IMG/VR virus record: IMGVR_UViG_2925914267_000002
Direction: 5' to 3' (one strand)
Source: a virus
Taxonomy: Duplodnaviria > Heunggongvirae > Uroviricota > Caudoviricetes
DNA: 28,749 nucleotides
The translations under genes and the position numbers were made by a program. The notes below the pieces were generated by a model. It was not told the DNA's origin. It was given only the letters and a program-made list of their open reading frames with translations, and ran no database searches. Shown here piece by piece: positions 1,659-28,749 of this stretch (position 1 is the first letter of the stretch; each line of letters opens with the position of its first letter).

Positions 1659-4130
1659 TTAAGAATCAGCCTGACTCGGGATCAGTTTTTGCCAGATAAC
1701 TGAAACGTATTTTGCCTGGTAACGGGCGTCATCAAGTGCATTATGGCGCTCACCTTCGAATGGAATAGCCGTTCTGGCATCGAAGTCTATGGCTTTCCCC
1801 AGCTCAACGATTGTGCGTACATCGCGATCGTTGTAGTAACGCCACGGGCAGGGGATCCCCTGCCGTTCGTATGAACGGCGCAAAATCGTGTTGTCGAAGT
1901 TGGCTCCATTTCCCCAAACCTGAACAAAAAATTCACCGGAGTTTTCGTCGATAAATTCCCGCAATTGTAACAGTGCATCATCTAACGGGATTTCATCGGT
2001 CATAATGGCAGATTGCGCTTCGCGTGATTGCTTAAGCCACCATTTAATGGTGTCCCGATCAATGACTCCGCCAGCAGTTTCCAGATCGATAGTCTTACTA
2101 AATTCCGGTCCCATATCTCCGGTTTGCGGATCGAAAAATATTGCACCTATTGAGATGATCGGGGCATCAGGATTTTTTCCCATGGTTTCAAGGTCGATCA
2201 TTAGATGGTCACACGTCCTGCTGGTGGATGTGATTTCATGATGACCGTTCACCTTAATTGAGTGATCTGCCGTCTCGCCAGTTTCATTATCGCTATTGTG
2301 ATGCTGATTGCCGCCAGTGTTCTCCTTGTGTGGATGTTCAGCGCCTTCCATTTCCTCCGGATCATCTTCCTGAACTTCAACCTGATACTCTTCATCGAAT
2401 GTTTCCTGGTATGTTGCGTCGCCCATCACCGCGCCACAATCAGGGCAGTTGCCGCCGCCGGTCTGACCGCAGGCGGTGCAGACTTTTTCCACTTCCTGTT
2501 GCGCCACTGGTTCAGGCTGTTTCGTTTCTGGCTCGTTTTGTAACGCATTTGGGCTGTTTTGTTCCGCTTTTTGGTAGTTCCGTTCCGATTCATGCTGGTT
2601 CTGGTTCACAGAATCGCGGGTCTGGATCCCCTTAACCCATTTCGGATCATTCGGGTCACTAATCCCTTCAACAAATTCACCACGTGATGCAGCAAGCAAC
2701 TTATCGGCGTCAGGCTGGCTGATATTGGCTGCCTGCATAATTTTGTTTACTTCGTCAGCGGTAACTTTTATCGGTTCTGGTTGTTCTGAATCTTCAGCGG
2801 TATCTACATTTTGCGGTAAGCCCGTGTATGTGCCATTTTTTCGGGCAAAATATTCTTCTTTTGTGATTTCAGTGGCGCCAGCAGCCAGTGCCTTATCCAG
2901 ACCAGAAAGTTTGTTTGCGCGACCGTATTTTTCTCCGTCCTTATCTGCGAAGAGGAAATAGAACGGCCCCTCACGCTCTACAGATGGTTCAGCTTCCGGC
3001 GCGGTTTCATTTTTTGGGATATCAGATACCTCAGTTTCCACTGCATCAGTTTGTGTTTCTGATGACTGGAGAACATCAACAGTGCCCAGGTCTGTTTCTT
3101 CATTCTCAAACACGCCCTTTGTCGTCAGGTATTCGCAGATATATTTGTTCAGTGCTACGGGATCTTTGTGAATGTCGATCGGACGCTCACGGACAAGGCC
3201 AAAAATAGTTTGGCGGTCGTAGCGAAGGGCATCAGGCTGTTTGCGCATTGATGCCGAGATACGCTTCCAGTCTTCGCGGTCGTTGTCGATAACTTCTTTT
3301 TTTGCCCAGCGATGGATGCTGCCGTCAATGTTTCCGGCATCCACATCACCAGGCCAGAGAGCGTAGGCCAGTTCGTCATCCAGTGTTTTCCATGTCTGCT
3401 TGTATTCGCGATGAATGGCAGCAATGACCGGGCTGATTTTTCCTGTTGAATTTTCAGTGTACTGTTGATTGGCTCTGGTGCGGGCGAGATCAACAACAGA
3501 CGTGTATTTTCCGGTTTCCTTGCGTTCACCTTCGCGACGTTTTTTCCAGATGCGCATCTCTGCCTGAATTTCGGGCCATTTAGCACCAGGAATACATTTA
3601 TGCTTAACCCACCCAATGGCGTGCAACTTAAGCTCCGGAAACATGGCGTTAACTTCTGGCATTTTCATCAACGCTTCAACGATATGTCCGTCGAATGTTG
3701 CCATGTCTTCCTGCAACAATTCCTGTGCGCTAATAACCATATCAACGGTGATGTTTTCACATGTGTCGAACTTAACCATGACAGCGTTCTGTACTTCAGG
3801 GGCCAGCTTGTCAAAAGTGACGTTCATCGGATCGGATTTAGTCTCAACCGGGACAAAAGAAGCAGACTCCTCATCCCAGCGGTTTTCCTGCATATATTCA
3901 GCATCCCATGAATCGAGGGCAGGGCGGGGTATGCCAGGTTTATCCTCGCAGACAATAAATTTATAAGCGCAGTCCTGAGCAGCCGGATAATGTTCCAGGA
4001 ACTGCCAGTGAAATTTTGCTCGAGCACGGCGTTCGTCGCCAGCTTCAATGGCTGTGGCTACAGCCACAGCGCCTTCTTCCCTTGTTGCCAGTTCGTCAGG
4101 AATAGCGGCGCAAATAAAGACTTTACTCAT
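1659..4130 (-). CDS. Large prophage exonuclease with C-terminal DEDDh 3'-5' exonuclease domain (often annotated exodeoxyribonuclease VIII-like)
   Basis: 823-aa ORF. C-terminal motifs HLMIDLETMG (Exo I D-x-E), WGNGANFD (Exo II) and HNALDDARY (Exo III H-x4-D). Central acidic low-complexity linker containing a CxxC-x13-CxxC zinc-ribbon-like motif (CTACGQTGGGNCPDCG). Confidence 0.7.
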   Translation of the reverse strand: MSKVFICAAIPDELATREEGAVAVATAIEAGDERRARAKFHWQFLEHYPAAQDCAYKFIVCEDKPGIPRPALDSWDAEYMQENRWDEESASFVPVETKSDPMNVTFDKLAPEVQNAVMVKFDTCENITVDMVISAQELLQEDMATFDGHIVEALMKMPEVNAMFPELKLHAIGWVKHKCIPGAKWPEIQAEMRIWKKRREGERKETGKYTSVVDLARTRANQQYTENSTGKISPVIAAIHREYKQTWKTLDDELAYALWPGDVDAGNIDGSIHRWAKKEVIDNDREDWKRISASMRKQPDALRYDRQTIFGLVRERPIDIHKDPVALNKYICEYLTTKGVFENEETDLGTVDVLQSSETQTDAVETEVSDIPKNETAPEAEPSVEREGPFYFLFADKDGEKYGRANKLSGLDKALAAGATEITKEEYFARKNGTYTGLPQNVDTAEDSEQPEPIKVTADEVNKIMQAANISQPDADKLLAASRGEFVEGISDPNDPKWVKGIQTRDSVNQNQHESERNYQKAEQNSPNALQNEPETKQPEPVAQQEVEKVCTACGQTGGGNCPDCGAVMGDATYQETFDEEYQVEVQEDDPEEMEGAEHPHKENTGGNQHHNSDNETGETADHSIKVNGHHEITSTSRTCDHLMIDLETMGKNPDAPIISIGAIFFDPQTGDMGPEFSKTIDLETAGGVIDRDTIKWWLKQSREAQSAIMTDEIPLDDALLQLREFIDENSGEFFVQVWGNGANFDNTILRRSYERQGIPCPWRYYNDRDVRTIVELGKAIDFDARTAIPFEGERHNALDDARYQAKYVSVIWQKLIPSQADS

Positions 4131-4223
4131 TTTGTTTTAACCTCATGACAGATTTAAGGATGAACAAATCCCTGCCATTGCTGGCATATAAGAATGAAAC
4201 CGGATATTTATTACGGAACTGTT

Positions 4224-6036: not shown

Positions 6037-6094
6037 AAAAACGGCGGCAGAGCAGTCACGGAGTAAAACTGATACCGCCAAACGTCACCAGAAA
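6037..6094 (-). ncRNA. dicF: DicF small regulatory RNA, with terminator U-tract
   Basis: Minus-strand sequence TTTCTGGTGACGTTTGGCGGTATCAGTTTTACTCCGTGACTGCTCTGCCGCCGTTTTT matches the DicF sRNA as I recall it. Lies between the ydfA-like genes and dicB as in K-12 Qin; 3' GC-rich stem plus U-run. Confidence 0.75.
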
Positions 6095-10435: not shown

Positions 10436-10489
10436 TGAACCGCCCCGGAAATCCTGGAGACTAAACTCCCTGAGAAAGAGGTAAACAGG

Positions 10490-10816
10490 ATGACTAAAAA
10501 TACTCGTTTTTCCCCCGAAGTCCGTCAGCGGGCGATTCGTATGGTTCTGGAAAGTCAGGATGAATATGACTCACAGTGGGCGGCAATTTGTTCCATTGCC
10601 CCAAAGATTGGCTGTACGCCGGAGACTCTGCGTGTCTGGGTTCGCCAGCATGAGCGGGATACCGGGGGCGGTGATGGTGGGCTCACCAGTGCTGAACGTC
10701 AGCGTCTGAAAGAGCTGGAACGTGAAAATCGTGAACTGCGCCGCAGTAACGATATCCTTCGCCAGGCTTCCGCTTATTTTGCGAAGGCGGAGTTCGACCG
10801 CCTCTGGAAAAAATGA
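10490..10816 (+). CDS. IS629 transposase OrfA
   Basis: 108-aa [26 protein letters not shown]..., typical IS3-family OrfA. Confidence 0.9.
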
Positions 10817-11703
10817 TGCCACTGCTGGATAAGCTGCGTGAGCAGTACGGGGTCGGACCGGTATGCAGCGAACTGCATATTGCCCCGTCAACGTATTACC
10901 ATTGTCAGCAACAGCGACATCATCCGGATAAACGCAGTGCCCGTGCGCAGCACGACGACTGGCTGAAGAGAGAGATACAGCGCGTATACGATGAAAATCA
11001 TCAGGTGTACGGTGTGCGTAAAGTCTGGCGTCAGTTGTTACGGGAAGGAATCAGGGTAGCCAGATGTACAGTGGCGCGCCTCATGGCGGTTATGGGACTT
11101 GCCGGTGTTCTCCGGGGTAAAAAGGTCCGCACTACCGTCAGCCGGAAAGCCGTTGCCGCAGGCGACCGCGTAAACCGTCAGTTTGTGGCAGAACGACCTG
11201 ACCAGCTGTGGGTGGCTGATTTTACTTACGTCAGCACATGGCAGGGCTTCGTCTATGTGGCGTTTATCATTGATGTGTTTGCCGGATACATCGTGGGGTG
11301 GCGGGTCTCATCGTCTATGGAAACGACATTCGTGCTGGATGCGCTGGAGCAGGCGTTGTGGGCCCGTCGTCCGTCTGGCACCATCCATCACAGCGATAAA
11401 GGCTCTCAGTATGTGTCACTGGCCTATACGGAGCGACTAAAAGAAGCCGGATTACTGGCATCAACAGGGAGTACAGGCGACTCGTATGACAACGCGATGG
11501 CTGAGAGCATCAATGGTCTTTACAAAGCGGAGGTAATACACCGTAAGAGCTGGAAAAACCGTGCAGAAGTGGAACTGGCCACACTAACGTGGGTGGACTG
11601 GTATAACAATCGACGATTGCTGGGAAGGCTGGGCCATACTCCTCCGGCAGAAGCAGAAAAAGCTTATTATGCTTCCATCGGAAACGATGATCTGGCAGCC
11701 TGA
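10813..11703 (+). CDS. IS629 transposase OrfB (DDE domain)
   Basis: 296-aa ORF overlapping orfA (ATGA); DDE-type motifs [25 protein letters not shown]. Confidence 0.9.
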
Positions 11704-11745
11704 GTTCACAGATAAAACACTCTCCAGGAAACCCGGGGCGGTTCA

Positions 11746-13185: not shown

Positions 13186-13859
13186 GTCGTCACCTTGATG
13201 ATTTGTTAATGCGGGGGCAACATTAATAAATGTACTTGAGACCGCAATTTGTCGATGGAGCCAACATTTATAACTATGTGCTTCTACCCTCTGAATTTTT
13301 ACATGTGAATTGCTAGCTTGAATAGCTCTATCATTATATACGTGGCACTAAATTATGGCTGTTTTTCGCTCAAAGCGGACTAGAAGGTTAGCTTGTGTCG
13401 GACTTTGCGTATTAAAAGAAGTGCTGGTGGTGACTAGTGGTTGTGCCCCATTTCCACAGAAAAAATCAGAGAAACTATACCCAATAGTTGTATTGAATCA
13501 CTGACGAGACAGCCTCATATTCATCAGGACTGGTCTACGTCCAATACAGGAGGTTGTGGTGCTGGTTCTCAAATGTGCGCTGGCTATTACGGCTGTAATG
13601 GCGATTTATTGTCTTGCTATTGTTCTTATGGATCGCCTTTCTGACTGATTTCATATTGGCGAGGTAACGGTAGTTAAGTAGAATGGCTGCGGGTGCTTGA
13701 GGCTATCTGCCTCGGGCATGAACACCAAAGGCAGATAGAGAAAAGCCCCAGTTAACATTACGCGTCCTGCAAGACGCTTAACATTAATCTGAGGCCAATT
13801 TCATGCTAGACACATGTAGGTTAGCCTCTTACGTGCCGAAAGGCAAGGAGAAGCAGGCT

Positions 13860-14015
13860 ATGAAGCAGCAAAAGGCGATGTTAATCGCCCTGATCGTCAT
13901 CTGTTTAACCGTCATAGTGACGGCACTGGTAACGAGGAAAGACCTCTGCGAGGTACGAATCCGAACCGGCCAGACGGAGGTCGCTGTCTTCACAGCTTAC
14001 GAACCTGAGGAGTAA
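13860..14015 (+). CDS. hokD: Hok-family type I toxin (HokD/RelF-like)
   Basis: 51-aa product MKQQKAMLIALIVICLTVIVTALVTRKDLCEVRIRTGQTEVAVFTAYEPEE from ATG 13860 (RBS AAGGAGAA); single TM helix; matches HokD/RelF as I recall it. An in-frame ATG at 13803 extends the frame by 19 codons. Confidence 0.9.
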   Translation: MKQQKAMLIALIVICLTVIVTALVTRKDLCEVRIRTGQTEVAVFTAYEPEE

Positions 14016-17279: not shown

Positions 17280-17579
17280 AAAAATTCCTTAATACTGATA
17301 ACTTGGCGCACTATACACACGTTCCTGAAGAAAGCTATAGTTTTTTGATGGGGTTGAAGATGGCTGGATGTCTAAAATAAACATTGCTTCATATGTTCAA
17401 CTATGCGTTAATGATTGCGTCGGTTTGAAGAACAGACGATATACGAAGTAGTTTACTAAAGCAGTTCTCATTTCAGGTGTTATTCACTTATTCCTTCTTT
17501 GAGTCTCTCCAATTAAGTACGAAGTCGTTTCTGTTATGCAAACCATTTATGCCGAAAGGCTCAAGTTAAGGAATGTAGA

Positions 17580-17795
17580 ATGTCAAATAAAATGACTGGT
17601 TTAGTAAAATGGTTTAACGCTGATAAAGGTTTCGGCTTTATTTCTCCTGTTGATGGTAGTAAAGATGTGTTTGTGCATTTTTCTGCGATTCAGAATGATA
17701 ATTATCGAACCTTATTTGAAGGTCAAAAGGTTACCTTCTCTATAGAGAGTGGTGCTAAAGGTCCTGCAGCAGCAAATGTCATCATTACTGATTAA
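17580..17795 (+). CDS. cspB: Cold-shock protein CspB
   Basis: 71-aa [74 protein letters not shown]; about 300-nt leader region shared divergently with cspF. Confidence 0.9.
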
Positions 17796-18075
17796 AATTC
17801 ATCGCTCGTCTGTATACGATAACGAAGAAGGCTGATGCCTGAGTAGAGATACGGACAGAGTAGTGAATATTGGATCTCTTTAATAAAAAGTAAGGAGGTC
17901 CAATACATGAAACAATGGCTAGCATATTTGGCAAAATCTTAATCAGGAAAAGTATGCTAACCATTGTGGTGAAGTGCAGGTTTGCTGCATGAATAGTTTT
18001 ACAGCAGAAGCTAACTGCTGGCATGGCAAAACAAAGTGCGTAAGTGGATGACTCCCACAAAAAGCACCACAATCT

Positions 18076-20102: not shown

Positions 20103-20465
20103 GGTAATATTAAATCGGAACATTTACATCGCGGAATGTAAAATTTAAATAAAAAGGACTCTTCCATGAGCCAAAATTCCTGAAATCTTAAGGGTAAGAT
20201 AAAAGGTCTTAATCAGAATGACACGTTTTATTAATAAATAAAGCTATTCTTTCATTGCTGTGTTTTTCTTTACAAAAGTAATCCTTGCTATGGGTGGTTA
20301 ATCATGCGTTAATGGTGTTCTGGTTTGTTACAAATTTATCTGAAGCAGTCATTGTTATAATTTTATTATTTGTACCTCTTGAGATTTCCTTGTTGGTTTT
20401 TCTCTCTGATATTTTTTTTTCGGACCATTCTGCCCAAGGGCTAATTTCTTCAAAAGGTAATAATT

Positions 20466-20678
20466 ATGTCTAACAAAATGACTGGTTTAGTGAAATGGTT
20501 TAACCCTGAAAAAGGTTTTGGTTTCATCACGCCGAAAGATGGCAGCAAAGATGTGTTTGTCCATTTCTCAGCAATTCAGAGCAACGATTTCAAAACATTA
20601 ACTGAGAATCAGGAAGTTGAATTTGGTATTGAGAACGGACCTAAAGGTCCTGCCGCTGTTCATGTAGTGGCGCTTTGA
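20466..20678 (+). CDS. cspI: Cold-shock protein CspI
   Basis: 70-aa [73 protein letters not shown]; long leader (20103-20465). Confidence 0.9.
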
Positions 20679-20711
20679 GGTAGACAATATTACAAACCAT
20701 ATTCACTTTAG

Positions 20712-22807: not shown

Positions 22808-23382
22808 TGGCATTCAGAATGAGTGAACAACCACGGACCATAAAAATTTATAATCTGCTGGCCGGAACTAATGAATTTATTGGTGAAGGTGATGCATATA
22901 TTCCGCCTCATACAGGTCTGCCAGCAAACAGTACCGATATTGCACCGCCAGATATTCCGGCTGGCTTCGTGGCTGTTTTCAACAGTGATGAGTCATCGTG
23001 GCATCTCGTTGAAGATCATCGGGGTAAAACGGTTTATGACGTGGCTTCCGGCGACGCGTTATTTATTTCTGAACTCGGTCCGTTACCGGAAAATGTTACC
23101 TGGTTATCGCCGGAAGGGGAGTTTCAGAAGTGGAACGGCACAGCCTGGGTGAAGGATACGGAAGCAGAAAAACTGTTCCGGATCCGGGAGGCGGAAGAAA
23201 CAAAAAACAACCTGATGCAGGTAGCCAGTGAGCATATTGCGCCGCTTCAGGATGCTGCAGATCTGGAAATCGCAACGGAGGAAGAAATCTCGTTGCTGGA
23301 AGCATGGAAAAAGTATCGGGTATTGCTGAACCGTGTTGATACGTCAACTGCACAGGATATTGAATGGCCAGCACTGCCGTAG
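22807..23382 (+). CDS. tfaQ: Tail fibre assembly protein (Tfa)
   Basis: 191-aa ORF; start overlaps the stf stop (TAATG); Tfa-like sequence and position. Confidence 0.85.
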
Positions 23383-23479: not shown

Positions 23480-24070
23480 TTATATGTCAGGTGTCTGAAG
23501 TTTTGCTTTGGCTCTTAAAATGGTTTGCCGCGAGGTTTTGAATTCCCGGGCAATGGCACTTATACTTACACCTGACTTAATTCGTTCGAATACCGCCTGT
23601 TTCTGTTCTTCATTTAACACAGGTGGTCGACCAAAACGTTTCCCTGCGCCGCGGGCTCTTACTATCCCGGAATGAGTGCGTTCAAGTAAAAGGTCTCGTT
23701 CAAATTCAGCGACTGCTGAAATTACTTGCATCATCATTTTTCCTGTTGGACTGGTCAGGTCAATGCCCCCCAATGCTAAGCAATGCACTCTGATACCTGT
23801 TTCGGTCAGTTGTTCCACTGTTTTCCTGATATCCATTGCATTACAACCAAGGCGATCCAGTTTTGTCACAATCAATTGATCACCACATTTCAGGCGAGCA
23901 AGCAACCGGTTAAAACCAGGACGCTCACTGGTTGCTGCTGAGCCGCTAATGTGTTCTTCGATTATTTGCTGAGGTTTGATTTTAAAACCTGCACTTTCGA
24001 TTTCCCGGCGTTGATTTTCGGTGGTCTGATCCAGCGTTGATATCCGACAGTAAGCAAAAATTCGAGACAT
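23480..24070 (-). CDS. pinQ: Pin/Gin/Hin-family serine DNA invertase
   Basis: 196-aa ORF with N-terminal catalytic motif YCRISTLDQ (active-site Ser) and C-terminal HTH ([20 protein letters not shown]); adjacent to stf and tfa. Confidence 0.9.
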
Positions 24071-24386
24071 AGTGAGACTCTATACGAAATTGGTGTTCAT
24101 ATCATAATGCATCTCAGAAAATAATTATGATTATTTTTGTGCATATTTGTATGTACACGTTCGAAAATAAACGAATGCGTATGCAACCCCGTAATTTTGG
24201 TGAGACCCAAAATCGATTTTGTGAAAAATGGCTTTAACTCGGTTTGTTTTTCGAGTTCCGGGCGGACTCAAGGAAGAAGAATAGTGTTGCGTGTTATTTT
24301 AACCAGATTTCAAGTTGTTTGGTCGTGGAAAAGTGGAGCAAAATGTTGTTAAAGTGGAAAAATGATAAAAAAGTAAGTTTATTATA

Positions 24387-24539
24387 TTACATTTTACCAT
24401 TTAAATTTTGGTTGTCTTTAAGAACTGATATCGCTGTTTGTAATAATTCTTTGTTATCCAGCCATGATTTTTTCTTTATGTTTCCTTCAATGTAATCAAG
24501 CAATGTTCTGGTATTGATAGGTCTTCCCTGTTTTGCTAC
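24387..24539 (-). pseudogene. ydfK: ydfK (cold-shock-induced small protein), C-terminal 51 codons, separated by IS3
   Basis: Reverse complement reads VAKQGRPINTRTLLDYIEGNIKKKSWLDNKELLQTAISVLKDNQNLNGKM-stop; continues from the N-terminal fragment at 25798-25872 across IS3. Confidence 0.8.
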
Positions 24540-24569
24540 TGATCCTACCCACGTAATATGGACACAGGC

Positions 24570-25436
24570 CTAAGCGAGGTTCTTGTTTTCAAATTGTTCC
24601 GGACTGAGGCCGCCACACCAACTGTGCCGCCGCCACCGATTGTAATCACATTCGATATAATTAAACACCGTTGCCCGCATTATTTCCCGGCTGATAAAGT
24701 GTTCTCCATGGATACATTCCACTTTCAGCGAATGAAAGAAGCTTTCCACGCAGGCATTATCGTAGCAGCAACCTTTTGCGCTCATACTTCCACGCAGATT
24801 ATGCCGCTTCAGTTGCGCCTGATAATCTGCTGAACAGTACTGGCCTCCACGGTCCGTGTGAACGATAACGTTCCGGGGCCTCTTACGCCGCCACAGCGCC
24901 ATCTGCAGGGCATCGCAGGCCAGTTGCGCCGTCATGCGTGGCGACATTGACCAGCCAATAACGGCACGTGACCACAGGTCAATGACCACTGCCAGATACA
25001 GCCAGCCTTCATCTGTACGTAAGTACGTGATGTCTCCTGCCCACTTCTGGTTCGGGCCACTGGCGTAAAAATCCTGCTCCAACAGATTTTCTGACACAGG
25101 CAGGCCGTGTGCGCGGTAGCTGACCGGGCTGAACTTCCGGGAGGCCTTTGCCCTCAGTCCCTGACGGCGCAGGCTTGCCGCCACGGTTTTTACGTTAAAG
25201 GGGTAACCCTGAGCACGCAGTTCATCCGTCAGGCGTGGGGCACCGTAACGCTGTTTTGACCGGGTAAAAGCCGCGAGGACAACGCTGTCGCAGTGTTGGC
25301 GGAACTGCTGACGCGTGCTTATCCTTGTCCGCCGCTGACACCACGTATACCAGCCGCTGCGGGCCACCCGGAGCACGCGGCACATTGCTTTGATGCTGAA
25401 CTCAGCCTGATGTTTTTCAATAAAGACATACTTCAT
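24570..25436 (-). CDS. insF: IS3 transposase OrfB (InsF)
   Basis: 288-aa DDE-domain ORF overlapping orfA. Confidence 0.95.
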
Positions 25437-25741
25437 TTCAGGCGCTTCGCGAAGTATGTCGCGGCCTTTTGGAGGATAGCCAGCTCTTCATCCCGTTCTG
25501 CCAGCTGGCGTTTGAGACGTGCAATCTCGGTAGACATCTCCAGTTCACGTTCAGAAGACGTCTGCTGATTTTGCTGTTTACTGCGCCAGTTGTAGAGTTG
25601 TGATTCATACAGGCTGAGTTCACGGGCTGCGGCAGTAACACCGATGCGTTCAGCAAGCTTCAGGGCTTCACTGCGAAATTCAGGCGAATGCTGTTTACGG
25701 GGTTTTTTACTGGTTGATACTGTTTTTGTCATGTGAGTCAC
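25433..25741 (-). CDS. insE: IS3 transposase OrfA (InsE)
   Basis: 102-aa [38 protein letters not shown]... Confidence 0.95.
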
Positions 25742-25797
25742 CTCTGACTGAGAGTTTACTCACTTAGCCGCGTGTCCACTATTGCTGGGTAAGATCA

Positions 25798-25872
25798 TAC
25801 AGCATCCCCTAGGATAATTCTTACTTCAGGAAGCTGCGCAGGGAACCACTTTAGGGTGTCTTTTGATTTCAT
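25798..25872 (-). pseudogene. ydfK: ydfK N-terminal 25 codons, with start codon
   Basis: Reverse complement reads ATG AAA TCA AAA GAC ACC ... = MKSKDTLKWFPAQLPEVRIILGDAV, ending at the IS3 target repeat. Confidence 0.8.
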
Positions 25873-26658
25873 GAAGATATTCCTTAAAATATTATTGATT
25901 TTCATTGCGATATTGTATGTCTGATTCAGGATATGTTGACTTATACATCGGTTTTGTCTGGGTTATTGGATATGCCAATCCCTAATTTTATTAGGGCATG
26001 ACTAAAAATGCTGAATATGATAAGGAGAGATGTGATTATCAGTATGCTGTTCATATAGCCTCGAATTAGTAATGTGTTATATATGATATAGTTGACAATT
26101 TTTATCTTGGGTGTTCTTAAAGTTCGTAGATAAACATTGTCGTTTCAGGTATACAGGAATGCTAACAGGTGGCAGCAAAAATCAGGCGGTTTATGGCGCA
26201 AGCTGAAGCGGCAACTGCAAACTATCTTATGCAGAGACTCTACACGGATTGGGTTTAAAAGTATACATAGATAACAGTTTTTATCTGAAAAAGAAAAATA
26301 TCAAGGTGATATAGCCTATATGCCTTTGATGCGGAGGAATGAATGTGATGGGAGTGATGTATCTGAATAGTTGAAAAACCGCAGACACGCCTTATGCAAG
26401 AACGTGCTGCGGTTGGCTGGTAAATTTTTCGATAGTGTGAGTATTGAATGATTTCCAGCCGTTCTTGATTTTACGCATAAATCCATGAAAAAACTACTTA
26501 TCTGTTGGGGAGTTTTTTTTGGGGCATATATGGGACAGAAATAGGCCCCAGATAGACACTGAGATCGAACTTAGGATGCTTTTTAAAAAATGCAACTATC
26601 TGAAAAAACCTAGAAAACGCCAAGGAAACCACAGGATGGGAAAAAACACCTGTGAATT

Positions 26659-27942
26659 ATGGATTTCCAGTTATATTCGCTCGGCGCAGCGTTAGTGTTT
26701 CATGAAATATTTTTTCCTGAATCATCAACGGCAATGGCGTTAATTCTGGCAATGGGAACCTACGGTGCAGGTTATGTGGCGCGTATTGTCGGAGCATTTA
26801 TTTTCGGCAAAATGGGCGACAGAATAGGGCGTAAAAAAGTGCTCTTTATTACCATCACCATGATGGGGATCTGTACCACCTTAATTGGTGTGTTACCGAC
26901 CTATGCACAGATTGGTGTTTTTGCACCCATCTTGCTGGTGACGTTGCGTATTATTCAGGGGTTGGGTGCAGGTGCGGAAATTTCCGGTGCCGGTACGATG
27001 CTGGCGGAATATGCGCCAAAAGGTAAGCGCGGAATTATCTCCTCATTTGTGGCTATGGGAACTAACTGCGGAACCTTGAGCGCAACGGCAATCTGGGCCT
27101 TTATGTTCTTCATTCTCAGTAAAGAGGAACTGCTGGCGTGGGGATGGCGTATACCGTTCCTGGCGAGCGTTGTCGTGATGGTCTTTGCTATCTGGTTGCG
27201 TATGAATCTGAAAGAAAGCCCGGTCTTTGAGAAGGTTAACGACAGTAACCAACCGACAGCAAAACCTGCACCTGCTGGTAGCATGTTCCAGAGCAAATCC
27301 TTCTGGCTGGCAACAGGGCTGCGTTTTGGTCAGGCGGGTAACTCCGGGTTAATTCAGACTTTCCTTGCAGGCTATTTAGTGCAGACGTTATTGTTTAACA
27401 AAGCAATTCCAACAGATGCATTGATGATCAGTTCGATTCTCGGCTTTATGACCATTCCGTTCCTTGGTTGGTTATCCGATAAAATTGGTCGCCGGATCCC
27501 GTATATTATTATGAATACCTCCGCGATTGTGCTGGCATGGCCAATGCTTTCTATCATTGTAGATAAAAGCTATGCCCCGAGCACCATTATGGTTGCACTG
27601 ATTGTGATTCATAACTGTGCGGTGCTGGGATTATTTGCTCTGGAAAACATTACCATGGCAGAAATGTTCGGCTGTAAAAACCGCTTTACCCGGATGGCTA
27701 TTTCTAAAGAAATTGGTGGTCTTATCGCTTCCGGTTTTGGTCCTATCCTGGCGGGTATTTTCTGCACCATGACGGAATCCTGGTATCCGATCGCCATTAT
27801 GATCATGGCATATTCAGTGATTGGTTTAATCTCTGCGCTGAAAATGCCAGAGGTGAAAGACCGTGATTTAAGTGCGCTGGAAGACGCTGCGGAAGATCAA
27901 CCGCGTGTTGTAAGAGCTGCGCAACCTTCCAGAAGTCTGTAA
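26659..27942 (+). CDS. ydfJ: MFS transporter (metabolite:H+ symporter family), YdfJ-like, apparently N-terminally truncated at the prophage junction
   Basis: 427-aa ORF with MFS motifs (GDRIGRKK after TM2, multiple TM segments) but starting inside the first TM helix (MDFQLYSLGAALVF...). No RBS before the ATG and an in-frame TGA two codons upstream. Confidence 0.8.
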   Translation: MDFQLYSLGAALVFHEIFFPESSTAMALILAMGTYGAGYVARIVGAFIFGKMGDRIGRKKVLFITITMMGICTTLIGVLPTYAQIGVFAPILLVTLRIIQGLGAGAEISGAGTMLAEYAPKGKRGIISSFVAMGTNCGTLSATAIWAFMFFILSKEELLAWGWRIPFLASVVVMVFAIWLRMNLKESPVFEKVNDSNQPTAKPAPAGSMFQSKSFWLATGLRFGQAGNSGLIQTFLAGYLVQTLLFNKAIPTDALMISSILGFMTIPFLGWLSDKIGRRIPYIIMNTSAIVLAWPMLSIIVDKSYAPSTIMVALIVIHNCAVLGLFALENITMAEMFGCKNRFTRMAISKEIGGLIASGFGPILAGIFCTMTESWYPIAIMIMAYSVIGLISALKMPEVKDRDLSALEDAAEDQPRVVRAAQPSRSL

Positions 27943-27951
27943 ACCCTTAAT

Positions 27952-27982
27952 CCCTTCTCTTACCGGAGAGGGGATTTTTATT
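27952..27982 (+). terminator. Rho-independent terminator after the ydfJ-like gene
   Basis: CCCTTCTC-TTACCG-GAGAGGGG hairpin (one G-U pair) followed by ATTTTTATT. Confidence 0.55.
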
Positions 27983-28051
27983 CATATAACAAAACAGGTG
28001 ATGCTGCCAACTTACTGATTTAGTGTATGATGGTGTTTTTGAGGTGCTCCA

Positions 28052-28327
28052 GTGGCTTCTGTTTCTATCAGCTGTCCCTCCTGTTCAGCTACTGACGGGG
28101 TGGTGCGTAACGGCAAAAGCACCGCCGGACATCAGCGCTATCTCTGCTCTCACTGCCGTAAAACATGGCAACTGCAGTTCACTTACACCGCTTCTCAACC
28201 CGGTACGCACCAGAAAATCATTGATATGGCCATGAATGGCGTTGGATGCCGGGCAACTGCCCGCATTATGGGCGTTGGCCTCAACACGATTTTACGTCAC
28301 TTAAAAAACTCAGGCCGCAGTCGGTAA
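28052..28327 (+). CDS. insA: IS1 InsA
   Basis: 91 aa, identical in protein sequence to the insA of the first IS1 copy. Confidence 0.95.
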
Positions 28328-28749
28328 CCTCGCGCATACAGCCGGGCAGTGACGTCATCGTCTGCGCGGAAATGGACGAACAGTGGGGATACGTCGGGGC
28401 TAAATCGCGCCAGCGCTGGCTGTTTTACGCGTATGACAGGCTCCGGAAGACGGTTGTTGCGCACGTATTCGGTGAACGCACTCTGGCCACACTGGAGCGT
28501 CTTCTGAGCCTGCTGTCGGCCTTTGAGGTCGTGGTATGGATGACGGATGGCTGGCCGCTGTATGAATCACGCCTGAAGGGAAAGCTGCACGTTATCAGCA
28601 AGCGTTACACTCAGCGCATTGAGCGACATAATCTGAATCTGAGACAACATCTGGCAAGGCTGGGACGGAAGTCGCTGTCGTTCTCAAAATCGGTGGAGCT
28701 GCATGACAAAGTCATCGGGCATTATCTGAACATAAAACACTATCAATAA
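28246..28749 (+). CDS. insB: IS1 InsB (variant isoform)
   Basis: 167 aa; differs from the first copy at several clustered positions ([20 protein letters not shown] vs [20 protein letters not shown]). Confidence 0.95.

Follow-up and report, generated by a model that had tools for sequence, protein, structure and literature searches.

The prophage gene ydfK is interrupted by a complete copy of the insertion sequence IS3 in the window, by which we mean the whole 28,749-nucleotide stretch of DNA analysed here. The ydfK reading frame breaks after codon 25 and resumes beyond the element at wild-type codon 28, and 9 bp of the uninterrupted gene are absent at the junction when the element and one flanking TAC are removed. 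The arrangement is very probably the outcome of a canonical IS3 insertion into codons 25–28 of ydfK that gave rise to a loss-of-function allele, and the junction probably formed in two steps. An event of this kind, the disruption of a prophage gene by IS3, is ordinary and already known; the IS3 site at ydfK itself was not found in the genomes and contigs that were searched.

The element occupies positions 24540–25797 on the minus strand and was delimited by its identity to annotated copies, its terminal inverted repeats and an alignment to the empty site, which bears out the 1258-bp IS3 described in an earlier note on this DNA. Over its full length (element positions 1–1258) it was 100% identical to Escherichia coli elements annotated as "IS3-like element IS3 family transposase," and 3816 of 5426 E. 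coli genomes contain a copy that spans 80% or more of its length. By its sequence, the element is IS3 itself and not a relative. It terminates in imperfect inverted repeats of 39 nt (TGATCCTACCC... and ...GGGTAAGATCA) with arms that are 72% complementary; the left repeat (IRL), upstream of orfA, lies at 25759–25797 and the right repeat of the same pair (IRR) at 24540–24578, both on the minus strand. The exact termini, TGATC...GATCA, have the TG...CA form of the IS3 family. Both transposase genes run on the minus strand, in the direction of ydfK. orfA (25433–25732, minus strand, 99 amino acids in the open reading frame list) carries an HTH_Tnp_1 domain (Pfam PF01527, E = 5e-10) and matches the N-terminal part of the NCBIfam transpos_IS3 model, and orfB (24570–25436, minus strand, 288 amino acids) carries the DDE integrase core (Pfam rve, E = 5e-28; NCBIfam NF033516, 339 bits) and also matches PF00665 and PF13333. 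The two frames overlap at 25433–25436, and RefSeq annotates their fusion by a -1 programmed frameshift on identical IS3 copies. Because the element is full-length, identical to known copies and intact in the domains of both orfA and orfB, it is probably still mobile.

Both sides of the element belong to ydfK. The 5' fragment (25798–25872, minus strand) holds codons 1–25 (MKSKDTLKWFPAQLPEVRIILGDAV) and matches intact ydfK from E. coli W5-6 exactly, and the 3' fragment (24387–24539, minus strand) holds, by reading frame and alignment, wild-type codons 28–77 and a TAA stop (VAKQGRPINT...NLNGKM). On the minus strand, the open reading frame that starts at ATG 25872 encodes the 25 residues of MKSKDTLKWFPAQLPEVRIILGDAV and then meets a TGA contributed by the outermost three bases of IRL (25795–25797, minus strand); past IS3 the frame resumes as AKQGRPINT...NGKM and reaches its stop codon at 24387–24389. 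The identity of the gene and its interruption after codon 25, both claimed in the earlier note, are confirmed by the W5-6 alignment. When the flanks were joined without IS3 and one TAC and searched against the E. coli genomes, they matched 2808 genomes, and the features under the match were annotated "ydfK: cold shock protein YdfK" and "ynfT." The flanks showed no mismatch to intact ydfK of W5-6 in 940 nt, with a 9-nt gap as the sole difference, and the order of the neighboring genes is kept; they are thus collinear with an intact ydfK in relatives. Neither fragment differs from the common allele WP_000836768.1, and the exact 77-amino-acid YdfK was found on at least 1000 contigs of a public protein collection. 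The window does not encode this full 77-residue protein, as its gene is split and amounts to 74 codons after removal of the element.

Translation of the interrupted gene would end after 25 residues at the TGA borne by IS3, and the remaining 50 codons would be severed from the promoter and the start codon. Initiation at an upstream ATG, at 25905, would give 36 residues rather than a 25-residue stub. Judged from the reading frames, ydfK here is a pseudogene and not a functional family member, and the insertion is best described as a simple null allele with a predicted loss of function. The cold shock label of ydfK is the RefSeq name for the gene. Transcripts of ydfK and ynaE were up-regulated together with those of the cold shock genes cspB and cspI (PMC7406224). 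A literature search for ydfK together with IS3 returned nothing relevant and no earlier report of this allele. The ydfK "mutations" that do appear in the literature are K51T/T51K. Residue 51 (K or T) is a difference between YdfK and YnaE, so these reports are probably the result of mis-mapping between the paralogs.

The junction is where the sequence departs from a textbook insertion. Read on the coding strand, the wild type is GCT GTA GTG GAA GTA GCA and the window is GCT GTA [IS3] GTA GCA. One TAC adjoins IRL (25798–25800, unstranded) and corresponds to wild-type codon 25 (GTA); the other adjoins IRR (24537–24539, unstranded) and is either wild-type codon 28 (GTA) or a duplicated copy. In the window, 6 bp (GTGGAA on the coding strand, codons 26–27; TTCCAC on the plus strand) are replaced by IS3. 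Counted with one TAC removed, the deficit is 9 bp, and the reconstructed frame has 74 codons compared with the 77 of intact YdfK (...GDAVVEVAKQG...). The earlier note had stated that ydfK is recovered exactly by removing IS3 and one TAC; the frame is indeed restored in this way, but three codons are missing from it. It had also reported a 3-bp target duplication. A TAC does stand on each side of IS3, but uninterrupted ydfK already has both TAC/GTA triplets, at codons 25 and 28. Since TAC occurs twice in the empty site, 9 bp apart, the flanking triplets cannot by themselves show a duplication. These features of the junction, including the deficit, are observed directly in the alignment.

A target duplication at ydfK is nonetheless plausible. 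Four of four arbitrarily chosen identical IS3 copies elsewhere had perfect 3-bp flanking repeats (GTC, GTA, GGA, and GAA), indicating that a 3-bp duplication is normal for IS3. The order and mechanism of the events are what we infer from this and from the repeat structure of the site. The most likely history involves two steps: a normal insertion of IS3 at either GTA codon, which would have duplicated 3 bp (TAC/GTA), and slipped-strand mispairing of the direct repeats GTAG...GTAG (codons 25–26 and 28–29), which would have removed 9 bp before or after the insertion. Slippage is favored because its expected product, the loss of exactly one repeat unit, is what is seen: the absent 9 bp correspond to one period of a 4-bp direct repeat with a spacing of 9 bp (CTAC-TTCCA-CTAC on the plus strand). 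Against this history, two independent events within 9 bp are a coincidence, and IS3 looks recent, being 100% identical to other copies and inserted at this site in none of the 5426 genomes. The intermediate that the history calls for was likewise not found among the genomes, proteins and contigs searched.

The search for that intermediate was extensive. Every one of the 2795 E. coli genomes that cover the site has the three missing codons, and no uninterrupted, 9-bp-shorter ydfK was detected among them; the site-covering matches were all in the band of 80–90% identity, which is what a 9-nt gap yields in a search with the shorter allele. Four records with at least 99% identity spanned under 80% of the query and fall outside the site-covering count. 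An exact look-up among about 15 billion proteins did not return the shorter protein, and a scan of the genome and metagenome contig collections did not return the shorter allele. Searches for the insertion were similarly negative: megablast with the left and right IS3-ydfK junctions found none in the 5426 complete E. coli genomes, the exact junction patterns were absent from the genome and metagenome contig collections, and none of the 5426 complete genomes has an IS3 here that retains the 9 bp on one side or the other.

The absence of an intermediate or shorter allele from every collection searched is also what a single, non-canonical event would leave behind. IS3 would then have integrated between the GTA codons 25 and 28 and replaced GTGGAA with no duplication. 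Parsimony favors one event over two, and both TACs sit in the uninterrupted gene exactly at the flanks of the element. IS3 transposes by a copy-out/paste-in route, and strand transfer by DDE transposases uses staggered cuts that give duplications and not deletions. A replacement of this kind conflicts with that established expectation and with the 3-bp repeats at four of four other IS3 copies, and identical flanking triplets would be expected without duplication only about 1 time in 64. We regard such an event as unlikely, though it is the more credible of the departures from an insertion followed or preceded by slippage.

An error of assembly or consensus at the repeat boundary, for example by the joining of contigs through CTAC, could also account for the 9-bp deficit around a real IS3 insertion. 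The window has three IS elements and ends inside one of them, an IS1 at 27998–28749, and IS junctions in such genomes are often rebuilt indirectly; the shorter allele, as noted, was seen nowhere else in the collections searched. The loss is nevertheless clean, in-frame and 9 bp long, with a direct repeat at its borders, and apart from it the 940 nt of flanks contain no error and bear no positive sign of misassembly. We consider an artifact improbable; in that case, one side of the junction would read CTACTTCCACTAC.

A recombinant origin has far less to recommend it. IS3 insertions at both GTA codons, in ydfK and/or the near-identical ynaE, could have recombined with loss of the intervening segment, and the final sequence is compatible with this. 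The ydfK/ynaE paralogs are present in many genomes, at up to three places in each E. coli genome, and another strain, PKF8, has an IS3 in ydfK whose two flanks do not match and which adjoins a large deletion. Such an origin requires two insertions 9 bp apart in addition to the recombination, and insertions of this kind were found in none of the 5426 genomes, making it very improbable. Insertion combined with slippage, in either order, is thus the reading that we carry forward.

The genes around the insertion have the arrangement found in relatives. In W5-6 the order is tfaQ, pinQ, ydfK, ynfT, truncated ydfJ, and ydfI, and the order pinQ-ydfK-ynfT-ydfJ, in the same orientation, was found in W5-6 and in several other assemblies. 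Next downstream of ydfK is an intact gene for a pinQ-type serine recombinase of 196 amino acids (23480–24070, minus strand; Pfam Resolvase and HTH_7), which is pinQ in W5-6. Upstream of ydfK, ynfT (25941–26054, minus strand) is intact and encodes a small protein of 37 amino acids, assigned by Pfam YnaM (E = 6.5e-28), the NCBIfam family YnaM_YnfT_fam and the W5-6 annotation. Its product is identical to a 37-amino-acid protein shown to be expressed in K-12, where the gene was called ynfQ (PMC6001520). The MFS transporter gene ydfJ (26659–27942, plus strand; open reading frame list and annotation in relatives) marks the boundary between prophage and chromosome, and in relatives RefSeq annotates it as truncated at the N terminus. 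The earlier note had described a long AT-rich region upstream of ydfK (25873–26658). The region is AT-rich, with 36.6% G+C vs. 46.4% for the window, but it is not an empty leader, as it contains ynfT. In the spacer between ynfT and ydfJ, there is also a weak Rfam match to CssrB, the chromosome-encoded Shigella sRNA B (26274–26411, plus strand); it falls below threshold (25.3 bits; gathering score, 76; E = 0.019) and is probably a chance match.

With IS3 facing the same way as ydfK, transcripts that arrive from the ydfK side would run on into orfA. It is conceivable, but doubtful, that IS3 integration replaced the 6 bp and that, separately or additionally, read-through from the ydfK side under stress or cold feeds the transposase; if so, the ydfK copy of IS3 would be a temperature-sensitive source of transposition. 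A promoter scan for read-through or hybrid promoters gave nine sites compared with 5.1 ± 2.0 expected, which is not meaningful, and the RNA fold of the junction showed no special structure (z = -0.73). A search for a structured cold shock leader upstream of ydfK gave no significant Rfam match in positions 24080–26700, either to a cspA-type thermoregulator or to any other family.

The wider setting is that of a lambdoid prophage. Rfam matches at the gathering level were obtained for DicF (6042–6093), sok, an antitoxin RNA of the hokD type (13691–13865), two cspA thermoregulator leaders (17419–17811 and 20319–20705) and IS009 (23150–23348), which together identify the window as a Qin-like prophage. 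By position, the two cspA-type leaders should belong to cspI-like and cspB-like genes. From these features and the gene order, the window represents the right-hand end of such a prophage, with ydfJ as the integration site. Coverage of positions 1–24539 did not exceed 84% in any genome of the E. coli collection. The source of the window is absent from that collection; an IS-rich lineage of E. coli or Shigella is a plausible origin. The query from 25798 to 28749, which spans the IS1 and ydfJ, was covered to at least 80% in only 76 of 5426 E. coli genomes. Two IS elements besides IS3 are present. A complete, 1310-bp IS629/IS1203-like element of the IS3 family lies between the DicF and sok regions (10436–11745) with AAT on both flanks, an orfA at 10490–10816 and an orfB at 10813–11703, and it contains an ALIL frameshift pseudoknot (10771–10887; Rfam, 121.5 bits). 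The IS1, which starts with GGTGATGCTGCCAACTTACTG in the ydfJ-ydfI spacer, is cut off by the end of the window and lacks about 16 bp of the full 768-bp length; since it runs off the end, the window or contig ends inside a repeat. The presence of IS3, the IS629-like element and IS1 within 29 kb marks this Qin-like prophage as rich in IS elements and decaying.

Insertion sequences have struck ydfK repeatedly in other strains. IS1 was found in ydfK at two positions, at about codons 37–39 and in both orientations, in four unrelated assemblies (CP059288.1, CP053247.1, LVSI01000012.1, and JABUWJ010000143.1). An independent IS3 insertion in the same orientation follows codon 5 of ydfK in E. coli PKF8 (NZ_CP156813.1; locus L004, positions 2893–4150), 60 bp closer to the start of ydfK than the insertion in the window. 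The PKF8 element has its other end in ydfU (DUF968), and the sequences flanking it are not alike (ATGG and GTC), which points to an IS3-associated deletion from ydfU to ydfK. Several independent IS1 and IS3 events in a gene of 234 bp suggest that ydfK is dispensable and lies in an AT-rich, insertion-prone region.

Two further sets of candidates were examined and rejected. Two metagenome contigs that encode the exact 36-amino-acid N-terminal open reading frame had appeared to share the junction, but these were merely contig ends. Contigs L002 (positions 3425–3427) and L003 (positions 905–907), which carry ydfK-like genes, break off no more than 2 nt from the point where IS3 inserted, just past GCTGTA; one of them continues into wild-type GTAGT and the other stops at GTA. 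Their ends are probably branch points of the assembly graph among ydfK/ynaE paralogs and not IS junctions. A called 38-amino-acid C-terminal ydfK open reading frame was considered as the same IS3 allele, and its contexts proved to be either intact ydfK under an old annotation or ydfK interrupted by IS1.

The insertion has little consequence beyond annotation, in that ydfK becomes a pseudogene in this genome, which also holds an intact, potentially mobile copy of IS3. The ambiguous junction with its 9-bp deficit is the sole point of mild interest, and it carries a caution: identical flanking triplets are no proof of a target duplication where the empty site has a short direct repeat.

Compared with known systems, the element resembles the IS3 of E. 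coli (IS3 group; insE/insF, IS3A–E of K-12) in length, sequence, terminal repeats, orfA and orfB and in its identical flanking triplets. It differs from IS3 elsewhere in E. coli only by location, the target here showing a net loss of 6 bp and not a clean gain of 3 bp. The interrupted gene resembles ydfK (Qin) and ynaE (Rac) of K-12, members of the 77-amino-acid YnaE family, in its fragments and its neighbor genes, and it differs from them in being split by IS3 and lacking codons 26–28 (equivalently 25–27). Like the IS-disrupted ydfK genes of other strains, it would be inactivated by an IS, although the positions differ and, for IS1, the element differs as well. One of these, the IS3 in ydfK of PKF8, is accompanied by a large deletion to ydfU and has no matching flanks, unlike the TAC-flanked IS3 of the window.
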